Source: Escherichia coli O127:H6 str. E2348/69
GTDB lineage: Bacteria; Pseudomonadota; Gammaproteobacteria; Enterobacterales; Enterobacteriaceae
DNA length: 64,000 nt
Reading direction: 5' to 3' (one strand)
NCBI RefSeq assembly: GCF_000026545.1
Contig: NC_011601.1
Shown here: piece after piece, positions 48,663 through 56,785 of the stretch
How the letters are laid out: every line of letters begins with the position of its first letter
How positions within the stretch are numbered: position 1 is the stretch's first letter
Notes under the pieces: model-generated
The model's input: the letters and a program-made list of their open reading frames with translations, nothing else
Told to the model about the DNA's origin: nothing
Database searches by the model: none
Program-made: the position numbers and the translations under genes

Positions 48663-48839
48663 ATGGATATGACCATGCAGGAATTACGGGCTACTCTAAA
48701 CCTATCCCCCAACTATCCTGAAGAAAACCACTTTCTAGATGATAATCTAACGGAAGAACTCGATAATGAGGAAATTCGACAACATCTGGGAATAGATTCG
48801 GATTGGATGGATGCAGTGGACACTAGCCAGATAATTTGA
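48663..48839 (+). CDS. Small highly acidic ORF (58 aa), not in ORF track
   Basis: Manual translation MDMTMQELRATLNLSPNYPEENHFLDDNLTEELDNEEIRQHLGIDSDWMDAVDTSQII; GGAG upstream. Confidence 0.25.
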   Translation: MDMTMQELRATLNLSPNYPEENHFLDDNLTEELDNEEIRQHLGIDSDWMDAVDTSQII

Positions 48840-49020
48840 ATCCTAACTAACAAAAACGCTGTCTGCCCTCTGTAGATTGGCGCTCTGTAGTGTTTGTCTT
48901 GCTTGCTTTTGACACCAAGTCGCCTGTAACTATGATCACGGGCAGGCATGAGCAAACAGATAACATAAAAGTCTATTATGGGAAGTGATTCAAGAAATCA
49001 TGGTAATTCATAGATAACTA

Positions 49021-49059
49021 AAATAGAATAATAGCCCAAATCAAACTTGATGAGGGCTA
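49021..49059 (-). terminator. Possible terminator downstream of the two-gene cassette
   Basis: TAGCCC/GGGCTA stem (16-nt loop) with T-rich minus-strand tail. Confidence 0.3.
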
Positions 49060-49064
49060 TATTT

Positions 49065-49724
49065 TTAGTAATTGAATGATGTGCCATTCCCGTTAGTTAG
49101 ACTTTTTATGCTTTTTCTGAGGAATGGGTGTGTCATAAAACCGTTGACTCTCACACCGTAGACTGATAGAAAATTTTGGCATATAGGTATCAATTTTTTG
49201 CTATCATCCTTTGATGATTTTAAATCAATAAGTGTTGATATGTCTTGGTGTGTTATTAATTCTGTTGAAAACTTAAGCGCCAAGCTTTCTTTTGCGAAAA
49301 TTGGCGCTCGCATTTCTGCACTGAGTGATATAAGAATTGTCCTTACGCACCATGATATCCTTTTATTCATTAAGAATTTGTTTTGAATGTTATTGTTTTC
49401 AGCACATATAAAATGCAATAATTTTGTTGCAGTATCAATATCATCTGAATAATTTTCTTTGTATTTAAATGATGATGATATGCTTTCAAATAGCTCCTCG
49501 TTAAATATTGGCAAGCCCTCTTCCTTCAAGTGCAAGGCAAATAAACTCCCACCTTCCATTATTTTCTTCGCCAATGCAACAGGATACATTGCTATATTTA
49601 ACTTTCCTTTCACAATCATTTTGTAATGTAGGCCATCGTATATAGCAAACATATCCACATCAGATGCCTCAGTTTGATCTCCACGAGCAGTGCTTCCATA
49701 AATAACCAAAGATTTAATATCCAT
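49065..49724 (-). CDS. Minimal nucleotidyltransferase (pol-beta superfamily) with C-terminal helical domain (219 aa)
   Basis: GS-x10-DVD motif (LVIYGSTARGDQTEASDVDMFAIY); start 1 nt after upstream stop; ~30% GC. Confidence 0.6.
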   Translation of the reverse strand: MDIKSLVIYGSTARGDQTEASDVDMFAIYDGLHYKMIVKGKLNIAMYPVALAKKIMEGGSLFALHLKEEGLPIFNEELFESISSSFKYKENYSDDIDTATKLLHFICAENNNIQNKFLMNKRISWCVRTILISLSAEMRAPIFAKESLALKFSTELITHQDISTLIDLKSSKDDSKKLIPICQNFLSVYGVRVNGFMTHPFLRKSIKSLTNGNGTSFNY

Positions 49725-49725
49725 G

Positions 49726-50847
49726 CTAAGACCTTGATGTACATATTTTATTTATTAAAGTTGGTATTAATATACCATACCACCATACACCAATCATCAT
49801 GTTAATCAGGTGTATTGTTTCATCTAGCTGCCCAATACCACTGGTCGTGCGCTCTGTTGAATACTTCGTGTAACCTGTAAGAAGAGTTATATCAACTGCC
49901 TTCATGAATGCCCCAATAACATCACCGGATGATGTTATTGCATAGATAATCGTAAATACAATCATGATAAATAAACCAACAAATATACATCTGAATAAAC
50001 TCCCTCCCCAACCATTAATGAGACCTGATGTATTTATTATAAAATTCTCAATCACTGATTTTAACAGCAGTATGCTGTACCATAGCTTTTTTGTTACTTT
50101 TGAATTACTACGCTCGAAGAGTAGAGATTTCTGCTTAGATTTTTGTTTGCATTTGAAGTGAACCTCTACCGCCTGATAATACACTTCATCATCCGGAATT
50201 GTAGATAATGAATTAAGCAATATCTTAGAGCACTTTGTTTTAGTTCCATAGGACCTGTATTTTTGGTACTCAGGTGTTGTACCTTCTTTCTCACAAATAT
50301 CTTTATCTTGATTTACAAATAGCGCACCAATAAATTTACTTGGCTCGATATATGTATTATTTAACTTTGTTTCATTACCGGAATAAGATATATCCTTATA
50401 TGTACAATTATTAAACTGACAGTTTTCAAATGATGCCATTGAAAAACTGCATTCGATAAAGGTACAATCTACAAATTTAATATTTTTGAAATTTGCATAA
50501 CCAAAGCAAACCTTCCTGAACTCACAACTCTTAAATGTTATTCTTATTCCTTTGTTGTCACCATATATATCACACTCTGTAAATACATATCCTGAAAAGA
50601 ATTTATTTTTAAAATTTTCAGGTTTATGTTTCTTTGATAAAATCAATTTTCCTTCATAGTCTTTAGGAGTAGCTATATGCTCAGGAATAGTTAAGTCTAT
50701 CGCTACCTTTCGAGGTCCAGAGTTGTTTTTCCCGTTAATATTTAGGTCGTCAAGTCCCCATTTGATGAACTCTTCCAGATTAATGTTAGGATCATATGTC
50801 GCATCCCAATAATTTTTTATCCGATGCTGCCTGATGCTGTTGGCCAT
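49726..50847 (-). CDS. Pentapeptide-repeat protein with C-terminal two-TM, ion-channel-like domain (373 aa)
   Basis: Central tandem pentapeptide repeats; C-terminal hydrophobic helices FRCIFVGLFIMIVFTIIYAI and MMIGVWWYGILIPTLI flanking LLTGYTKY; AT-rich. Confidence 0.6.
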   Translation of the reverse strand: MANSIRQHRIKNYWDATYDPNINLEEFIKWGLDDLNINGKNNSGPRKVAIDLTIPEHIATPKDYEGKLILSKKHKPENFKNKFFSGYVFTECDIYGDNKGIRITFKSCEFRKVCFGYANFKNIKFVDCTFIECSFSMASFENCQFNNCTYKDISYSGNETKLNNTYIEPSKFIGALFVNQDKDICEKEGTTPEYQKYRSYGTKTKCSKILLNSLSTIPDDEVYYQAVEVHFKCKQKSKQKSLLFERSNSKVTKKLWYSILLLKSVIENFIINTSGLINGWGGSLFRCIFVGLFIMIVFTIIYAITSSGDVIGAFMKAVDITLLTGYTKYSTERTTSGIGQLDETIHLINMMIGVWWYGILIPTLINKICTSRS

Positions 50848-51659
50848 TTTTTAACCCACACAATTCTTTTGTTATGTATTTCAGGCTTTGTTAACGTTTC
50901 AGCCAGAATGCTGCACTGTCTGTATATACAAAAAACTGAGTATTGGTGCTATCGTCACCGGTAACTGGAACTTTTACACGGGAGCATCAACCAAATTCGT
51001 TCTTTCATTGTATCCGCGTTATACGTGCATTCAAGCTACAAGATGATGAAAAACGCCTGTGTCTATTCTAGCAAGTGAACCGTCGTGAGTTCAACAGACA
51101 CAAGGGGCTACCCTTCAACAGATCCTGCTCTATGGTTGGGGGCCCCCCTTCGCGTTATGCGTTCTACGTTCATAAATGTTCGCTATTGGCACATGTCGGG
51201 TGAAATACTTGACCAAAAACTAAAGTACACGTGCCTAAGCAAAATCTGAAACTGAGAGACTGGCTAGTCAGAGTCGAATTTTACGCAAGGACTCGGTTCA
51301 ACTCTTTGTTTGGCAGTCTCTGCTCCCAAAAATGGTTTCATGCATATGATAAACCTTTTAGATTAGATTGAGCTCAGGTCAACAATAGTGTCAGATCGAG
51401 CACAAATCAGCACTAATGATGCTACACATCGTTTAGCACATCCAATTTTAGCCACCTAAAATGCGTTCTAATGCGGATATATGTCTACCTGCAATTCTTT
51501 CACCACTTCACACCGAAAACCTCAAATATCGGCTCCTATTACGTTTTTTCTCTGGCTGGGATTTTTACACGTCGAGAATAGGGAAAACATCCCAAAAAAC
51601 GCTTACAGTATTGACGTTACGTTGCAGGTATTCTGGCTTTCAGCATTACAACGCCAATA

Positions 51660-51910
51660 TATATTATTGTTTTTAATATTGTTTTTATTTATCGTTATAA
51701 GATTGATTGTTTTTTATACATCAATTTTTCTATAAGAGTGAATCCTAAATATTGATATTTCTATGGGGTTGCCCTTCATCAAAATTGCGTTTTTTTCTAA
51801 GACTTTTGCTTTTTCATTGAGCTACGCGGATACGCCGCCTCTGGCGGCTTTCTCCCGCGACAGGTCACAATCGTCGAATGCGAGTCGCCGCCTTTGGCGG
51901 CTTTCTCGCT
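51660..51910. repeat. Origin-like region: AT-rich iterons plus duplicated hairpin next to rep
   Basis: TTGTTTTTA three times (51668-51713); CGCCGCCTCTGGCGGCTTTCTC (51832-51853) and CGCCGCCTTTGGCGGCTTTCTC (51884-51905), each a GCCGCC/GGCGGC hairpin. Confidence 0.4.
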
Positions 51911-51991
51911 ACTGACGTTTGAGGAGATTATGTTGTGGTTTAATGACTATTTTTGATTAAAAAAACCACAAATGGTCGCAAAACTCTACTA

Positions 51992-52990
51992 CTAATAGTA
52001 ACTGCGCATCCTTCTTTCTCTGGATATGTTCAAGCGCGCTTTTCTCAGCACCAGCAACAGCGGCTTACTTCTTAACAATTCACAAAGCGTTATCGCCTTC
52101 GGTGAGTACTGTCTGGCTTGCAGCGCCTCTCTACGCTCTACCTCTGCGGCTTTTCTGAGGGCTAGCGTTTGTAAGTTGTAGTATGTTTTATCGCTACATG
52201 TAACGATGATTGGTTTCACATGTGATCGTTCGGGTGAGTCAGCCAGTGTTCGCTGTATCCTGCGGCGCTGCGCTGGTCTTTTTGCTTTTGACGCTTCAAG
52301 TTTCAACTGCGTACGCCGTACTTCAAAGTATCCCGCTGCTTCTGGGGTTATGATCTGCGATGCGTGCGTTGCCCAATTACTGGATGACGCCCATACGGAC
52401 ACTGATAACCAGTCGTACGGGCTTTTTTCTGCTCTGGCATTAAACTCCTTAAGTTTAGTTTTACCTTTTGTAAGGTACGATAGGACTTCAAAACTGTAAA
52501 CGAATCTAACATCTTGATTTTTAATTAAATTATTGCGACCCTCATATGGCTGGCGCTTTACCCACGCAACCAGCAGGTCTCTCGCTATGCTCTCATCTGG
52601 AACTTTCACAATCATGTGTAAATGTAGGGTATCCTGAAACGCCGCCCACTCAACACAATATATCCACGGAATACTGCGTCTCGTAAGCGAGCGTGTGAAT
52701 GTGGTTATCGCCGTTTTCAAAGTCTCCGGCGTGATGCACTGTGCTGGGCGTAAGGTCAGCAAATATACGTTTCCACCTTGTGTAGCATCCAGATCGATAG
52801 AGAGTAGACGTCTTTTGAAGGCTCTAAGCCTGTCAATCGAAAAAGCCACTTTGCGCTTTCTGATGTGGCTGTTTGGGCTTGTTTTCTTTCTTTGCTTGTT
52901 TTGGTTGCGTGGTTTCATGTAAGCGTCAACAAATGCACCACGCTTGCGCACGATGTATTGTTCAGCGCGATCCCCGTGATATAATTTCAT
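51992..52990 (-). CDS. Rolling-circle-type (HUH) replication initiator (332 aa)
   Basis: HUH-like motif TLHLHMIVKV and downstream Tyr motif VLSYLTKGKTK; basic C-terminus. Confidence 0.5.
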   Translation of the reverse strand: MKLYHGDRAEQYIVRKRGAFVDAYMKPRNQNKQRKKTSPNSHIRKRKVAFSIDRLRAFKRRLLSIDLDATQGGNVYLLTLRPAQCITPETLKTAITTFTRSLTRRSIPWIYCVEWAAFQDTLHLHMIVKVPDESIARDLLVAWVKRQPYEGRNNLIKNQDVRFVYSFEVLSYLTKGKTKLKEFNARAEKSPYDWLSVSVWASSSNWATHASQIITPEAAGYFEVRRTQLKLEASKAKRPAQRRRIQRTLADSPERSHVKPIIVTCSDKTYYNLQTLALRKAAEVERREALQARQYSPKAITLCELLRSKPLLLVLRKARLNISRERRMRSYY

Positions 52991-53042
52991 TGCGAATATG
53001 TTCCTAAAATTACCCGCCTGGCAGGGCGGGTTTTTTTATGTC

Positions 53043-53432
53043 TTACAGGTACTTTTCCCCAATTGCTTGCGTTATCTCTGAGAACGACGATTCAGACACG
53101 TCCCCTCTGATCCCCCTAAGTATTCGTAACGCAGACTCAACCTTGCGTAATATCTTCGTGTATCTTGCATTGGTGCGCCATATACAAAGCATTCCCGCTT
53201 TGTCGAGTCGGTATTTTACCAAATCCCTTTCAGGAATGTGATATGCACCATCCATGCGCTGTTCGACGGGGATACCCCAGTCATTACGTAACAGAGTTAA
53301 AACACGGCTGCGCTCATGTCCACCAGCAGAAGATAAGTACCTGTCAAATTGGGTTGGGGTGAGGCTATGACCATCTAACAGAATATCGCGGATCTGTGCG
53401 GTAGCTTGGTTTCGTGTCAATGCTTTCATCAT
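53043..53432 (-). CDS. Hypothetical protein (130 aa from ATG at 53432)
   Basis: Track ORF (231 aa) trimmed because its N-terminal third overlaps the AlpA-like gene in another frame. Confidence 0.4.
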   Translation of the reverse strand: MMKALTRNQATAQIRDILLDGHSLTPTQFDRYLSSAGGHERSRVLTLLRNDWGIPVEQRMDGAYHIPERDLVKYRLDKAGMLCIWRTNARYTKILRKVESALRILRGIRGDVSESSFSEITQAIGEKYL

Positions 53433-53439
53433 TTGCCCC

Positions 53440-53622
53440 TTACAGAAACCGGGCTGCGAATTGGTCGAGATCTGCAACCAACCATACTCTGCGCTTTCTG
53501 CCGTTGATAGACTGGACGGTGCAAGTCGGAAAAGCTGGAATGTAACGCTTATATTGGTAAAAGCGTGATAGACAAACGCCAAGATATTGCGCGGATTCTC
53601 GCGCGGTAAGGTAATTTTCCAT
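53440..53622 (-). CDS. Small AlpA/Xis-like HTH protein (60 aa)
   Basis: LTARESAQYLGVCLSRFYQYKR HTH-like segment; sits between int and rep. Confidence 0.45.
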   Translation of the reverse strand: MENYLTARESAQYLGVCLSRFYQYKRYIPAFPTCTVQSINGRKRRVWLVADLDQFAARFL

Positions 53623-53824
53623 AATAACGATCCATGTTTATGTTTTGTCCACATTATGGGGCATCCTGCCCCATAAATACTGTACATAATTTTTTCAATT
53701 ATCCCAAGTCTACAACCAAAAAATCTCCCGCGTAGCAATCCCTATAGTTCGCCCTTGTTCTGTTTCAATTTCATATACGCTAGCTCCACACAAGCTGTAT
53801 CGCCACCATAATTTCGATCTCCGG

Positions 53825-55087
53825 CTAATTACAGTTACTATATTTTTTCATGGGGACGACGTTGTAATCTTCACCACTTTCCAGCGTAACCAGCAGTTCA
53901 GCCCACTGCTCCAATGCAGCTTTTCTCTCTTCAAAATAGTGGTGGCGATTATAAATACCTTCAACACCGGGTATTTTATGATTAAGACATCTTTCAGCTA
54001 TTACAGGATCAATCCCCAATGCTGCCATCTGGGTACGCATCGTACGTCGTAAGTCATGAATGCTAAATGGCTCAACATCAGGCATCTCTTTTAATACTGA
54101 AGGCAAAACCATATTCAGCGTACTGCGACTAACGTGCGATGTAGTCCTCCCCCTCCTTGCCGGAATTAACCAGCGGCTATTACCAGCAAACAGACGGATT
54201 TCCTTGATCCATTCGATAACAGGATCAGCTAGCGGGATGTCTATCTCCTCACCATTTTTTGCTCGATCAGCAGGAAAATGCCAAACTTTTTCATCAAGAT
54301 TAAACTCCGACCACTCGGCAGCGCATAATTCCATCTTGCGAACCCCTAGCGCGAGAATGATTTTAAACGTTAACTCATTCTCTCTGCTAATACCCCGCCC
54401 CTTACGCAGAGCTTTAAAAAACATTACTAGCTCCTCACGCGTGAGTGCTCGCTTACGCCCTTGCTCTTTCCCGCCTGCATCTTTTGAACTAAATGAAATC
54501 GCGGGGTTTACTTCAATCATCCCGCGTACAACAGCATAATCAAAAAGGCGCTTAAGCATTCTTAGCACGTCATTCGCAACGGTAGGAGAACCGCGCTCTA
54601 ATACATTCTGCAAAACATAGTCGATATGTTTCGGGCGTACATCCTCAATTTTCATTTTGCCGATAGATGCGACAATGTTTTTTTGTAAGCTACTGCGAAA
54701 TAACTCCGGATGCTTGTAAGTGGGTTCTATCTGCCGCGAGTAATACTCAGCGGCTAAATCTGATACTCGTTTTGCGTTCTTTTGCGCTTCAATCTTTTCC
54801 AATGCTTCAGCTTTTCGCTTCTGTTTCTCTCCTGCTACGTCATAACCAAGAGAAACACGGGCTGCCAGTTCTCTGGCGACCTCTCTTGCTTTTGCAAGAG
54901 AGAAATCAGTATACGAACCAATCAGCACAACTCGCGATTTTCCGCCTAACTTGTAACGAAAGCGCCAGTTAGGGAGTTTGTCACTTTTCCTAAATCGAAG
55001 ATAAAGCCCGTTTCCGTCTGCCTTACCTTCGAATCTCTCATCGGATTTAATCCAAGCTTTGATTTGTAGGTCAGTTAATTTTGCCAT
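53825..55087 (-). CDS. int: Tyrosine integrase (P4-type)
   Basis: MAKLTDLQIKAWIKSDERFEGKADGNGLYLRFRKSDKLPNWRFRYK arm-binding N-terminus; HDLRRT...Y catalytic region; ATG at 55087 with GGTG RBS. Confidence 0.8.
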   Translation of the reverse strand: MAKLTDLQIKAWIKSDERFEGKADGNGLYLRFRKSDKLPNWRFRYKLGGKSRVVLIGSYTDFSLAKAREVARELAARVSLGYDVAGEKQKRKAEALEKIEAQKNAKRVSDLAAEYYSRQIEPTYKHPELFRSSLQKNIVASIGKMKIEDVRPKHIDYVLQNVLERGSPTVANDVLRMLKRLFDYAVVRGMIEVNPAISFSSKDAGGKEQGRKRALTREELVMFFKALRKGRGISRENELTFKIILALGVRKMELCAAEWSEFNLDEKVWHFPADRAKNGEEIDIPLADPVIEWIKEIRLFAGNSRWLIPARRGRTTSHVSRSTLNMVLPSVLKEMPDVEPFSIHDLRRTMRTQMAALGIDPVIAERCLNHKIPGVEGIYNRHHYFEERKAALEQWAELLVTLESGEDYNVVPMKKYSNCN

Positions 55088-55111
55088 TACGAACACCTGA
55101 ATACGTTACAT

Positions 55112-55206
55112 CGGGTACGCAAAGCCATCGTCACCGTGTACCCAATTTCTAACACCGTGTACCCAAACCGCAAGAACCTCTCTTTGGGTACACTTTTGTG
55201 TACACA
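55112..55206. promoter_or_regulatory. Cluster of GTAC-core direct and inverted repeats upstream of int
   Basis: CACCGTGTACCCAA twice (55132-55145, 55153-55166, 21-bp period); TGGGTACACttTTGTGTACACA (55185-55206), also found at 47924-47945. Confidence 0.4.
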
Positions 55207-55245
55207 ATATCTTGCATCTTTATGAACTGTTATGACAACTAGTGA

Positions 55246-55272
55246 TAATAAAAAAGCCCGCAATATGCGGGC
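55246..55272 (-). terminator. Rho-independent terminator of der
   Basis: GCCCGC-aatat-GCGGGC hairpin with minus-strand T-run. Confidence 0.5.
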
Positions 55273-55312
55273 TTATAAGGTTTTGTAGTGTTTAGTGAAT
55301 CGTGATGATTCG

Positions 55313-56785
55313 TTATTTGCTTTTCTTGATATGCTTCATCAAACGCTTACGCTTGCGCATCTGGGTTGGCGTCAGGGTATTACGCTTGTTCGCATACGGG
55401 TTTTCCCCTTCTTTGAACTGAATACGAATCGGCGATCCCATTACGTCCAGCGATTTGCGGAAGTAGTTCATCAGGTAACGCTTGTAGGAATCCGACAGGT
55501 CTTTCACCTGATTACCGTGAATCACCACAATCGGCGGGTTATAACCACCGGCGTGGGCATATTTCAGCTTCACACGACGACCGCGTACCAGCGGCGGTTG
55601 GTGATCTTCAACAGCCATCGTCATGATGCGCGTCAGCATAGAGGTCCCCACACGACGGGTGGAGCTGTCATACGCTTCACGTACTGATTCAAACAGGTTA
55701 CCAACACCACTGCCGTGCAAGGCAGAGATAAAGTGCACACGAGCAAAATCGATAAAACCCAGACGGAAGTCCAGCGTTTCTTTCACCTGCTCTTTCACTT
55801 CCTGGCTCAGGCCATCCCACTTATTCACCACAATGACAAGTGAGCGCCCACTATTGAGAATAAAGCCCAGCAGCGAGAGATCCTGATCGGAAATACCTTC
55901 GCGGGCGTCAATCACCAACATCACCACGTTGGCATCTTCAATGGCCTGCAACGTTTTGATTACCGAGAACTTCTCTACCGCATCGGTGATTTTGCCGCGT
56001 TTACGTACGCCAGCGGTGTCAATGAGCACATACTCACGTCCGTCGCGTTCCATTGGAATGTAGATACTGTCACGCGTCGTGCCAGGCATGTCGTAAACAA
56101 CAACGCGCTCTTCACCAAGAATACGGTTAGTGAGTGTAGACTTACCTACGTTCGGGCGACCCACAATCGCCAGTTTGATCGGCAGACTTTGCGGGTCGAA
56201 GTCGTCTTCCTCTTCTTCTTCGCCGTTCTCTTCCGCTTCAAATTGCGCCCAGTATTCGGCGTCTTCGTCGACTTCTTCTTGCGGTGCGAGATCTTCCATC
56301 CACGGCAGCAGCACGTGCTCCAGCAGACTTAATACGCCACGACCGTGAGACGCGGCGATCGGGTAGATTTCACCTAAACCAAGCGCGTAGAAATCAACCA
56401 CTGCCTGATCGGGATCCAGACCGTCAGTTTTGTTTGCCACCAGGAAGGTCGGTTTTTCACGGGAGCGCAGATGTTTGGCAATCGCTTCATCTGCCGGCAT
56501 AAGGCCCGCGCGCGCATCCACCATAAACAGTACGACGTCCGCTTCTTCAATCGCCAGCAGCGACTGTTCCGCCATGCGGGTTTCTACACCGTCTTCTGTG
56601 CCATCAATCCCGCCGGTATCAATGCAGATAAACTCACGGCCTTCAATTTCCGCACGACCGTACTTACGGTCACGAGTCAGACCCGGGAAATCCGCAACCA
56701 GCGCATCTCGGGTGCGAGTTAGACGGTTAAATAACGTGGATTTTCCTACGTTAGGGCGCCCGACAAGCGCGACCACAGGTACCAT
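55313..56785 (-). CDS. der: Ribosome-associated GTPase Der (EngA)
   Basis: Two GTPase domains (GRPNVGKST twice); 490 aa from [17 protein letters not shown]. Confidence 0.95.

Follow-up and report, generated by a model that had tools for sequence, protein, structure and literature searches.

The window analysed here is the whole stretch of 64,000 nucleotides from Escherichia coli O127:H6 str. E2348/69 (contig NC_011601.1). The locus of interest consists of two adjoining genes that can move together as a module:

49726..50847, minus strand: halA, the Hailong effector, 373 amino acids (NCBIfam, PDB, AlphaFold model and RefSeq name)
49065..49724, minus strand: halB, the Hailong nucleotidyltransferase, 219 amino acids (NCBIfam near-miss, PDB, family profile and AlphaFold model)
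49050..50908, no strand: transferable Hailong module, comprising both genes with 61 nt upstream and 15 nt downstream (Serratia alignment)

The genes run in the same direction, halA first, which is the gene order of Hailong. Their open reading frames were as the original prediction had drawn them, with the halA stop and the halB start 1 nt apart; the junction reads ...TCT TAG C ATG.... The same prediction called the cassette AT-rich, at about 30% GC, and a GC content of 33.3% was found, compared with 43.2% in the backbone arms of the element that carries it and 49.6% in the whole window. Scans for promoter and terminator consensus sequences returned sites no more numerous than those in shuffled sequence, and operon boundaries are therefore not claimed. 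Rfam gave nothing relevant, either over the whole window at the gathering threshold or over 48500-52100 at a permissive threshold.

Both proteins belong to named families. PDB entry 9nyi is HalA, entries 9dbh, 9dbi and 9dbj are HalB, and the NCBIfam models NF051894 and NF051895 represent the Hailong pair. The two Hailong proteins have reportedly been characterised both structurally and functionally, by Tan et al. in Nature in 2025. In the first gene product two domains can be placed:

50359..50604, minus strand: HalA residues ~82-163, pentapeptide-repeat beta-helix (Pfam, model and 9nyi alignment)
49738..50013, minus strand: HalA residues ~279-370, ion-channel domain (model, hydropathy, conservation and 9nyi alignment)

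HalA scores 295.2 bits against the equivalog NF051894 (anti_phage_HalA), whose cut-off is 250, with residues 9-369 spanning positions 1-337 of the 338 in the profile. Its sequence matches that of 9nyi, an entry of 4 chains with the words “in complex with oligodeoxyadenylate” in its title, at E=8e-35 over residues 87-372. An AlphaFold model of the protein (mean pLDDT 76.3) has 9nyi_A as its best PDB fold match (E=2.7e-19, TM 0.61/0.68, 365 aligned columns), and the predicted fold has, as in 9nyi, a pentapeptide beta-helix crown and a C-terminal ion-channel domain. The order of parts along the chain is an N-terminal region, the pentapeptide-repeat beta-helix, a helical stalk and a C-terminal 2-TM pore domain. 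Residues 102-160 match Pfam Pentapeptide_4 (E=1.2e-9), beta strands run from 82 to 163 in the model at pLDDT 81-95, and this stretch is the best-conserved part of the alignment to 9nyi; by homology it would form part of a DNA-binding “crown”.

In the C-terminal domain the model places TM helix 1 at residues 279-305, a short pore-type helix at 310-321, the loop LLTGYTKY at 322-329 and TM helix 2 at 339-370, and Kyte-Doolittle peaks are centred on residues 288-305 and 356. The two TM helices flank an invariant pore-loop segment, D-I-T-x-L-x-G-Y-T-K, in which D319, I320, T321, L323, G325, Y326, T327 and K328 do not vary among 10 homologues, down to about 40% identity. In the alignment, the counterpart of this region is the channel domain of 9nyi; fold matches to the transmembrane regions of Kv channels are weak (E 0.03-0.06). 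The earlier description of the upstream product, pentapeptide repeats followed by a TM pair around LLTGYTKY, is thus borne out by Pfam, the AlphaFold model and hydropathy, and structure prediction, which had been proposed as a check on the channel-like domain, returned a two-helix pore architecture with 9nyi as its best match.

Two sites were located in the product of the second gene:

49653..49697, minus strand: HalB G10-S11 ... D22-V-D24, Pol-beta catalytic motif (family conservation)
49068..49070, minus strand: HalB Y219, the last residue, candidate priming tyrosine (family conservation)

HalB reaches 187.7 bits against the equivalog NF051895 (anti_phage_HalB; E=1.9e-55, profile positions 2-191 of 211) and so fails the cut-off of 190 by 2.3 bits. 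This near-miss is outweighed because a profile of 72 family sequences, this HalB included, matches PDB HalB over its full length (E=6.7e-64, positions 2-227 of 230), and because the fold agrees at TM 0.80-0.84. The single sequence matches the HalB entries 9dbh, 9dbj and 9dbi at E=4e-19. For the AlphaFold model (mean pLDDT 93.9) each of the 13 best fold matches is a HalB structure (TM 0.76-0.84), with ANT(4') at a TM of about 0.5. The nucleotidyltransferase signature predicted for the downstream product, G10-S11...D22-x-D24, matches NTP_transf_2 and Polbeta. All of 72 family members share its residues G10, S11, D22 and D24, and the GS...DxD motif is present in all 146 of 146 near-full-length members. 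With an inferred offset in numbering, D22 and D24 appear to correspond to the aspartate pair mutated in PDB 9dbi (“HalB D21A/D23A”), with which they align; K169, conserved in at least 90% of 72 homologues, aligns with R164, which is mutated in 9dbj.

The C-terminal tyrosine of HalB is said by Tan et al. to serve de novo (protein) priming. A tyrosine is present at this end of the E2348/69 protein too, and Y219 is a candidate for that role: 15 homologues all have it, its conservation across 72 is 90% or more, and it sits in a tail (residues 215-219) that the model shows as disordered, with pLDDT <50. Among 146 family members 142 have a tyrosine within the last 8 residues, where composition would lead one to expect 26% and a control window gives 27%. 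Such priming by HalB is also supported by the wording “poly-dA adducts of HalB” in PMC13275509.

The homology results bear directly on a resistance-like function, the alternative first offered for the pair, in which Qnr/McbG-type protection of topoisomerase would be coupled to ANT/Lnu-type nucleotidylation of a drug. The pentapeptide repeats of HalA do give weak matches to Qnr, MfpA and AlbG, with which HalA shares a right-handed pentapeptide beta-helix segment, and the HalB model is distantly like the ANT(4') fold (TM about 0.5), both having a Pol-beta NTase core and a helical C-terminal domain. However, both sets of resistance models stay far below threshold: those of the Qnr family reach 12-18 bits where 240-500 are required, and the ANT(4')-I equivalog reaches 11.5 bits where 350 are. 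Qnr and MfpA are soluble dimers of ~200 residues that are beta-helix throughout, whereas the pentapeptide region takes up only about 80 residues of a membrane protein of 373, the whole fold of which matches HalA. The best fold for HalB is HalB itself (TM 0.8, E=1e-16, compared with E=1e-6 for ANT), and the resistance proteins have no membrane domain. For both proteins of the cassette HalA and HalB are the best matches, by many orders of magnitude. The resistance reading is effectively refuted, and we would give it almost no weight.

The pairing, which the original prediction did not recognise as a named system, is therefore Hailong, with NCBIfam models, PDB entries and the RefSeq name halA; homology search, suggested at the time as the check on novelty, assigned it to this characterised system. 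The Hailong identity of the cassette is already known and is not new. The RefSeq annotation of E. coli E2348/69, with which the window is 100% identical, already gives the first gene the name halA and labels halB “nucleotidyltransferase domain-containing protein”, a generic label that follows from its score below the NCBIfam cut-off. PADLOC-DB 2.0, which is without a Hailong model, had no match for HalA and only short NTase-motif matches for HalB, to the candidate families PDC-S09 and PDC-M05A. This outcome fits a published remark that neither PADLOC nor DefenseFinder picks up Hailong as yet (bioRxiv 10.64898/2026.02.27.708500). No paper linking Hailong with E2348 was found in the literature library searched, and Rousset et al. 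2022 do not mention a pentapeptide/NTase pair.

Comparison with other copies delimits the module. Positions 49050..50908 are 79% identical in nucleotide sequence to a Hailong locus of Serratia marcescens and the likeness ends at the module edges. The adjacency of halA and halB is kept in Serratia (80% identity) and in a P4-like satellite of Yersinia (about 40% identity). Relative to the Serratia copy dN/dS is 0.095 for halA and 0.088 for halB; both genes are under strong purifying selection. Hailong is rare in E. coli: of 5426 complete genomes, 4 carry it. A tblastn search with HalA found no match in 50,697 phage records; PHROGs families exist for both proteins (phrog_24530 and phrog_24076), presumably sourced from prophage or satellite-derived entries.

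Set beside the solved Hailong pair, the E2348/69 cassette has the same gene order and adjacency. Its HalA has the same full-length fold, with crown, stalk and 2-TM pore domain, and its HalB has the same Pol-beta fold, GS...DxD motif, C-terminal helical domain and C-terminal tyrosine, with K169 as the equivalent of R164. The differences are an identity of only 26-28% to the solved proteins, an extra HalA segment of ~30 residues (roughly 52-80) that is modelled at low pLDDT and is absent from the 342-aa P4-type HalA, and the carrier, a mini-element that integrates at der. Membership of both proteins in the Hailong families is clear, and it is very probable that the cassette is a halA-halB anti-phage operon, divergent yet intact, that acts as published for its homologues.

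The carrier is an integrative element of ~7.5 kb lying in the last codons of der. Its parts are as follows:

47849..47862, no strand: attL core CTTTTCTTAATATG, leftover copy of the der 3' end (empty-site comparison)
47959..48558, minus strand: 199-aa AlpA-family HTH regulator at the far end of the backbone (PHROG phrog_66, E=1e-8)
48663..48839, plus strand: 58-aa backbone ORF, convergent with halB (PHROG phrog_35119, full length, E=5e-14)
48860..51373, no strand: variable cargo slot (comparison with other E. coli genomes)
51992..52990, minus strand: 332-aa HUH rolling-circle Rep-like backbone protein (Pfam REP_ORF2-G2P, residues 78-176, E=1.2e-5)
53440..53622, minus strand: 60-aa AlpA/excisionase-like backbone ORF, unannotated (weak match to PHROG phrog_66, excisionase/regulator, E=0.005)
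53825..55096, minus strand: tyrosine integrase (PHROG phrog_1, E=1e-65; RefSeq tyrosine-type recombinase/integrase)
55320..55333, no strand: attR core CTTTTCTTGATATG, inside the last codons of der (empty-site comparison)

The ends of the element were set by an empty site in strain A25, where the att core is present as a single copy; the window matches this site up to 47862 and homology resumes at 55313. The C-terminus of Der, ...MKHIKKSK*, is regenerated by sequence of the element. A 39-nt imperfect repeat (47924 and 55185) was considered as att and rejected because the empty-site comparison places the true core at 47849-47862 and 55320-55333; both repeats are internal to the element and are better read as integrase arm sites. 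The window contains no tRNAs and the element is therefore not tRNA-targeted. Three Rep-type motifs are seen in the Rep-like protein, YLLTL at 76, HLHM at 123 and YLTKG at 172. Three other variants of the backbone also have the 60-aa ORF intact, at 98-100% identity and in a gap left unannotated. Backbone variants annotate the 58-aa ORF as hypothetical, and the orthologue of the 199-aa regulator in strain AH50 is an AlpA family transcriptional regulator in RefSeq.

Other E. coli genomes carry both backbone arms (47834-48859 and 51374-55300) at 91-98% identity, with different DNA in place of what lies between. In the sister elements the slot holds a CBASS cyclase with a 2TM effector (AH50), PDC-M43A/B (M114) or an ATPase with a DUF2357 protein (MB50). 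These same-slot replacements, by CBASS or other candidate defence systems, support the view that Hailong is cargo. It is clear that the cargo position proposed for the pair stands, since the pair is flanked by the conserved arms of an element with its own integrase, and the idea of a defence hotspot gains support from the CBASS and PDC-M43 systems carried in the same slot. Within the slot, no noteworthy ORF was seen in the 465-bp stretch upstream of halA (50909-51373), and homologues of this stretch occur solely in the four genomes that carry Hailong.

The carrier had also been called a satellite, a part of the prediction that stays putative: neither genes for exploiting a helper nor packaging genes turned up in the element. 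A P4-like satellite, judged by an integrase together with genes of the alpha primase/helicase, delta/Ogr, psu/sid and epsilon types, was rejected, as the element has only the integrase, AlpA-like proteins, the HUH Rep-like protein and small ORFs. Its status as a satellite is unproven. A P4-like satellite of Yersinia frederiksenii offers a parallel, with the same two genes as variable cargo beside an integrase in a small mobile element. There, however, HalA is about 40% identical and lacks the insertion, and Ogr/Delta, AlpA, Phage_ASH and a primase mark the carrier as a canonical P4-like satellite; of these four only an AlpA-type protein is found here. Hailong of this Yersinia type, borne on P4, has been tested as an antiviral system (bioRxiv 10.64898/2026.02.27.708500). 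It is possible, though we think it doubtful, that the E2348/69 carrier represents an undescribed minimal family of ~7.5 kb at the der 3' end, consisting of an integrase, AlpA/Xis-like proteins, an HUH Rep and a single exchangeable defence slot.

According to the literature on Hailong, the single-stranded DNA made by HalB is produced constitutively and is inhibitory, holding HalA closed until a phage exonuclease frees it. By homology, HalB of E2348/69, as a Pol-beta-type nucleotidyltransferase, would constitutively polymerise dATP into short single-stranded oligo-dA in the uninfected cell, probably primed on its own C-terminal tyrosine (here Y219). This oligo-dA would bind the cytoplasmic pentapeptide-repeat “crown” of a HalA membrane complex, a putative tetrameric channel, and so keep the C-terminal two-helix, pore-loop ion channel closed. 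Phage DNA exonucleases, needed for phage replication, would degrade the oligo-dA; the freed HalA would open, the membrane would depolarise and growth of the infected cell would stop before the phage cycle is complete. That this copy makes oligo-dA, gates a channel, responds to exonucleases and protects against phage is thus an inference from the literature. Since the solved pair is only 26-28% identical to it, the length of the oligomer, the nucleotide preference and the range of triggers could differ, and it is a possibility, given this divergence and the HalA insertion, that the divergent clade uses a polymer length or a phage trigger unlike those of the characterised system.

The order of events could also be reversed, as in CBASS, with the nucleotidyltransferase silent until infection is sensed and its signal or modification then opening the membrane effector. 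Type I CBASS, a CD-NTase with a 2TM effector, shares with the cassette a nucleotidyltransferase, a membrane-disrupting effector and an abortive outcome, it fills the identical slot in the AH50 element, and the computed data do not tell constitutive from induced synthesis. However, HalA and HalB are of their own families rather than the CD-NTase or 2TM families, and the PADLOC Cyclase and Effector models match neither protein. A cyclic oligonucleotide made upon infection activates the CBASS effector, whereas the Hailong signal is reported to be linear ssDNA that is made all the time and inhibits; the C-terminal tyrosine of 142 of the 146 family members fits a protein-primed polymer better than cyclic-nucleotide synthesis. 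We consider activation of the CBASS kind very improbable here. The abortive-infection logic suggested at the outset therefore stands as regards a nucleotidyltransferase paired with a channel-like membrane effector, but not as regards an enzyme that activates the effector, the published logic being the reverse.

A parallel in logic is provided by Panoptes (mCpol with 2TM-beta) and by the p3diT of Clover, in which a constitutive nucleotide likewise represses a toxic effector and its depletion by phage is the trigger. Their enzymes are unrelated to HalB, being a Cas10-like mini-polymerase and other NTases; their signals are 2'3'-c-di-AMP and p3diT, and what triggers them is a phage nucleotide sponge or nuclease, where Hailong answers to DNA exonucleases.

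Hailong also resembles a toxin-antitoxin system, HalA being a toxin restrained by the product of HalB, and the pair might mainly be an addiction module that stabilises the island, without a significant phage phenotype in its host. The cassette does sit on a mobile element, and around its motif HalB has a weak likeness to the MntA antitoxin NTase (22.8 bits). That score is, however, far below the cut-off of 60 and the HEPN toxin partner is absent; homologous Hailong systems protect against phage according to the literature, and the same slot of the sister elements holds recognised defence systems. A role confined to addiction is accordingly judged highly unlikely. Stabilisation of the island and defence are not mutually exclusive.

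The discovery value of the locus is low because the structures and mechanism of Hailong are in print, both proteins are covered by NCBI models and the name halA is already in use in RefSeq. The der-targeting carrier with its rolling-circle Rep is the one mildly novel by-product, although it could turn out to be a new helper-dependent phage satellite or a rolling-circle integrative element that shuttles defence systems. Automated annotation under-calls Hailong in EPEC E2348/69, since this clade of HalB falls under the NCBIfam cut-off and PADLOC-DB 2.0 is without a model. The carrier is a tidy natural case in which defence cassettes are exchanged at one fixed slot, and a rare Hailong copy in the prototype EPEC strain may affect its phage susceptibility, in phage-therapy and phage-typing work.

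Two minus-strand open reading frames account for the AT-rich stretch at 49065-50847:

49726..50847, minus strand: ORF1 (halA), 373 aa, ORF call
49065..49724, minus strand: ORF2 (halB), 219 aa, ORF call

The original prediction of two adjoining genes is correct to the base, the junction reading TCT TAG C ATG with 1 base between the stop and the next start. The cassette is also AT-rich as proposed, at 33.3% GC compared with 43.2% in other parts of the element carrying it and 49.6% in the window. It is clear that the pair, previously not recognised as a named defence system, is the named and characterised Hailong system, as the NCBIfam HalA and HalB models, PDB structures and the RefSeq halA label demonstrate.

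ORF1 matches NF051894 ("anti-phage Hailong system effector protein HalA") over its full length with 295.2 bits (cut-off 250 bits), and its sequence matches PDB 9nyi, in which HalA is bound to oligodeoxyadenylate, at E=8e-35. The best PDB fold match of its AlphaFold model (mean pLDDT 76.3) is 9nyi_A (E=2.7e-19, TM 0.61/0.68, 365 columns), followed by weak matches to Kv-channel pore domains. In E. coli E2348/69 (EPEC O127:H6), which is 100% identical to the window, RefSeq labels it "halA: anti-phage Hailong system effector protein HalA". The architecture originally read from the sequence is also seen; pentapeptide repeats occupy residues 102-160 (Pfam Pentapeptide_4, E=1.2e-9), and the C-terminal part has two long hydrophobic helices, at about 279-305 and 339-370 by AlphaFold model and hydropathy, with a short helix and LLTGYTKY between them. 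The LLTGYTKY segment belongs to a D-I-T-x-L-x-G-Y-T-K block invariant across 10 homologues.

ORF2 bears the expected pol-beta nucleotidyltransferase signature, G10-S11...D22-x-D24, and matches NTP_transf_2 and Polbeta. Its score against NF051895 ("Hailong system nucleotidyltransferase HalB") is 187.7 bits and misses the cut-off of 190 bits by 2.3 bits; because of this narrow miss its RefSeq label in E2348/69 is, as expected, the generic "nucleotidyltransferase domain-containing protein". Three HalB entries are present in the PDB (9dbh, 9dbi and 9dbj); the ORF2 sequence matches HalB at E=4e-19, and a 72-sequence family profile including ORF2 covers positions 2-227 of the 230 in solved HalB (E=6.7e-64). 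Therefore the C-terminal helical domain, formerly unassigned, is the HalB C-terminal domain. The 13 best fold matches of the AlphaFold model (mean pLDDT 93.9) are all HalB chains, with TM 0.76-0.84, and ANT(4') lies far below at about 0.5. A resistance function of the Qnr/ANT type, the alternative first offered for the pair, is rejected on both profile scores and fold matches.

G10, S11, D22 and D24 are invariant in the 72 family members; D22/D24 correspond in the alignment to the aspartate pair replaced in the PDB entry "HalB D21A/D23A", and K169, at least 90% conserved among the same members, to R164, which is mutated in 9dbj. In the work of Tan and colleagues on Hailong, the C-terminal tyrosine of HalB reportedly primes DNA synthesis. 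A tyrosine is found in the last eight residues of 142 of the 146 near-full-length HalB family members (26% expected from composition; 27% in a control window), and in this HalB it is the final residue, Y219, in a tail that is disordered in the AlphaFold model.

We infer that the published Hailong mechanism (PMC13276650, PMC13275509, PMC12265719, PMC12657218, PMC12657230) applies to this copy. HalB would constitutively produce short ssDNA, oligodeoxyadenylate, which would bind the HalA ion-channel complex and repress it; phage DNA exonucleases would destroy the oligodeoxyadenylate and set HalA free, leading to membrane depolarisation and growth arrest. "Poly-dA adducts of HalB" are mentioned in PMC13275509. 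Of the earlier scheme, in which the enzyme senses and the effector kills, the outcome is retained and the control is inverted, since the published HalB DNA represses HalA until phage exonucleases act. A CBASS-like logic, with HalB activating HalA, is unlikely, as it conflicts both with the families to which the proteins belong and with this mechanism; an addiction-module role of the pair is compatible with defence and no true alternative to it.

The E2348/69 copy is a divergent Hailong member, with no sign of being another type of system. It is only 26-28% identical to the solved pair, its HalA has an insertion of roughly 30 residues and its HalB falls just under the curated threshold. The pair is kept together in Serratia marcescens (80% protein identity) and in Yersinia (about 40% identity), where a canonical P4-like satellite carries it beside the integrase. 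Comparing the E. coli genes with their Serratia counterparts gives dN/dS values of 0.095 (halA) and 0.088 (halB), with dS about 1.2-1.3, which indicates strong purifying selection on both. The cassette occurs in 4/5426 complete E. coli genomes. Hailong itself is already known from a 2025 publication with structures, NCBIfam models and the annotation in E2348/69, and a satellite-borne Hailong was tested in an independent 2026 preprint (bioRxiv 10.64898/2026.02.27.708500), which states that PADLOC and DefenseFinder miss the system. In agreement with that statement, PADLOC made no Hailong call on this pair. A literature search found no paper connecting Hailong with E2348.

The carrier element is about 7.5 kb long. 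Comparison with the empty site of strain A25 (L008) shows its junctions to be marked by a 14-nt core, CTTTTCTT[A/G]ATATG, at 47849-47862 and 55320-55333, which is single-copy in A25. The target is der, an essential ribosome-biogenesis GTPase gene, and no tRNA; the second core copy falls within the final der codons, and a replacement 3' end supplied by the element (about 47863-55333) restores the Der C-terminus (...MKHIKKSK and stop). Imperfect direct repeats of 39 nt, TGGGTACAC..TTGTGTACAC, are found a short way inside each end of the element (47924-47962, 55185-55223), and the inverse motif, CACCGTGTACCCAA, has two exact copies close to the integrase gene (55132-55166); these are plausible arm-type binding sites of the integrase. 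The backbone genes are:

53825-55096, minus strand: tyrosine integrase
53440-53622, minus strand: AlpA/Xis-like (excisionase-like) ORF, 60 aa
element backbone: small hypothetical gene
51992-52990, minus strand: Rep-like 332-aa protein, HUH rolling-circle motifs; Pfam REP_ORF2-G2P, E=1.2e-5 (weak)
element backbone: 58-aa ORF
element backbone: AlpA-family regulator, 199 aa

The 332-aa "hypothetical protein" contains three HUH motifs (YLLTL at 76, HLHM at 123, YLTKG at 172), and its sequence suggests that the excised element may replicate by a rolling-circle mechanism. Directly downstream of its gene a GC-rich hairpin unit of 22 nt, CGCCGCCTCTGGCGGCTTTCTC, occurs in two nearly identical copies (51833-51854 and 51886-51907) that are 53 nt apart and may serve as terminators or as an origin element for replication by Rep. 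The 60-aa ORF is overlapped by a 203-aa RefSeq call in E2348/69 and is intact, at 98-100% identity, in an unannotated gap of three other backbone variants; it is probably a missed gene, and its neighbour is probably over-extended in E2348/69.

The empty-site junctions, the integrase and the swapped slot between conserved arms confirm that the cassette is cargo of a small integrative element. The further description of this element as a satellite lacks support; no P4 hallmark genes are present on comparison with the Yersinia P4-like locus, nor does the element carry recognisable packaging or capsid-redirection genes. Rather, it resembles the "integrase-only defence-carrying islands" left unclassified by Hochhauser et al. 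(PMC10121019).

The backbone is found in 21/5426 complete E. coli genomes. The arms (47834-48859 and 51374-55300) are shared at 91-98% identity by sister copies, in which the intervening stretch is replaced:

L005 (AH50), 2742-4654: type I CBASS (cyclase and 2TM effector)
L006 (M114), 2941-4696: PDC-M43A/B (PADLOC candidate system)
L007 (MB50), 1412-5829: 849-aa ATPase (weak PDC-M26A match) and 618-aa DUF2357 protein, no recognised system in PADLOC 2.0

With these contents the slot is a true defence hotspot, as had been suspected of an integrative island. Similarity to the Serratia locus spans 49050-50908, which takes in both genes and 61 nt upstream. A 465-bp non-coding stretch (50909-51373) separates the Hailong module from the conserved backbone; it is restricted to the four E. 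coli genomes that carry Hailong, is missing at the Serratia Hailong locus and has no ORF of note or Rfam match. Its candidate roles are a promoter region or a remnant of earlier cargo.

Directly outside the element are sinI and sinH (43900-47108), encoding an autotransporter-associated protein and an intimin-like inverse autotransporter, and a frameshifted IS4 transposase fragment (about 47504-47769). The der-yfgJ interval is therefore a composite of adhesin islet, IS remnant and defence element. The sroE sRNA, an ordinary core-genome feature, is in its expected place at 60024-60115 (minus strand; Rfam RF00371, 116.6 bits).

As a by-product, only the carrier is mildly new, a mini-element that targets der, encodes a Rep and has an exchangeable defence slot, among whose contents the ATPase and DUF2357 pair of MB50 may merit a look.
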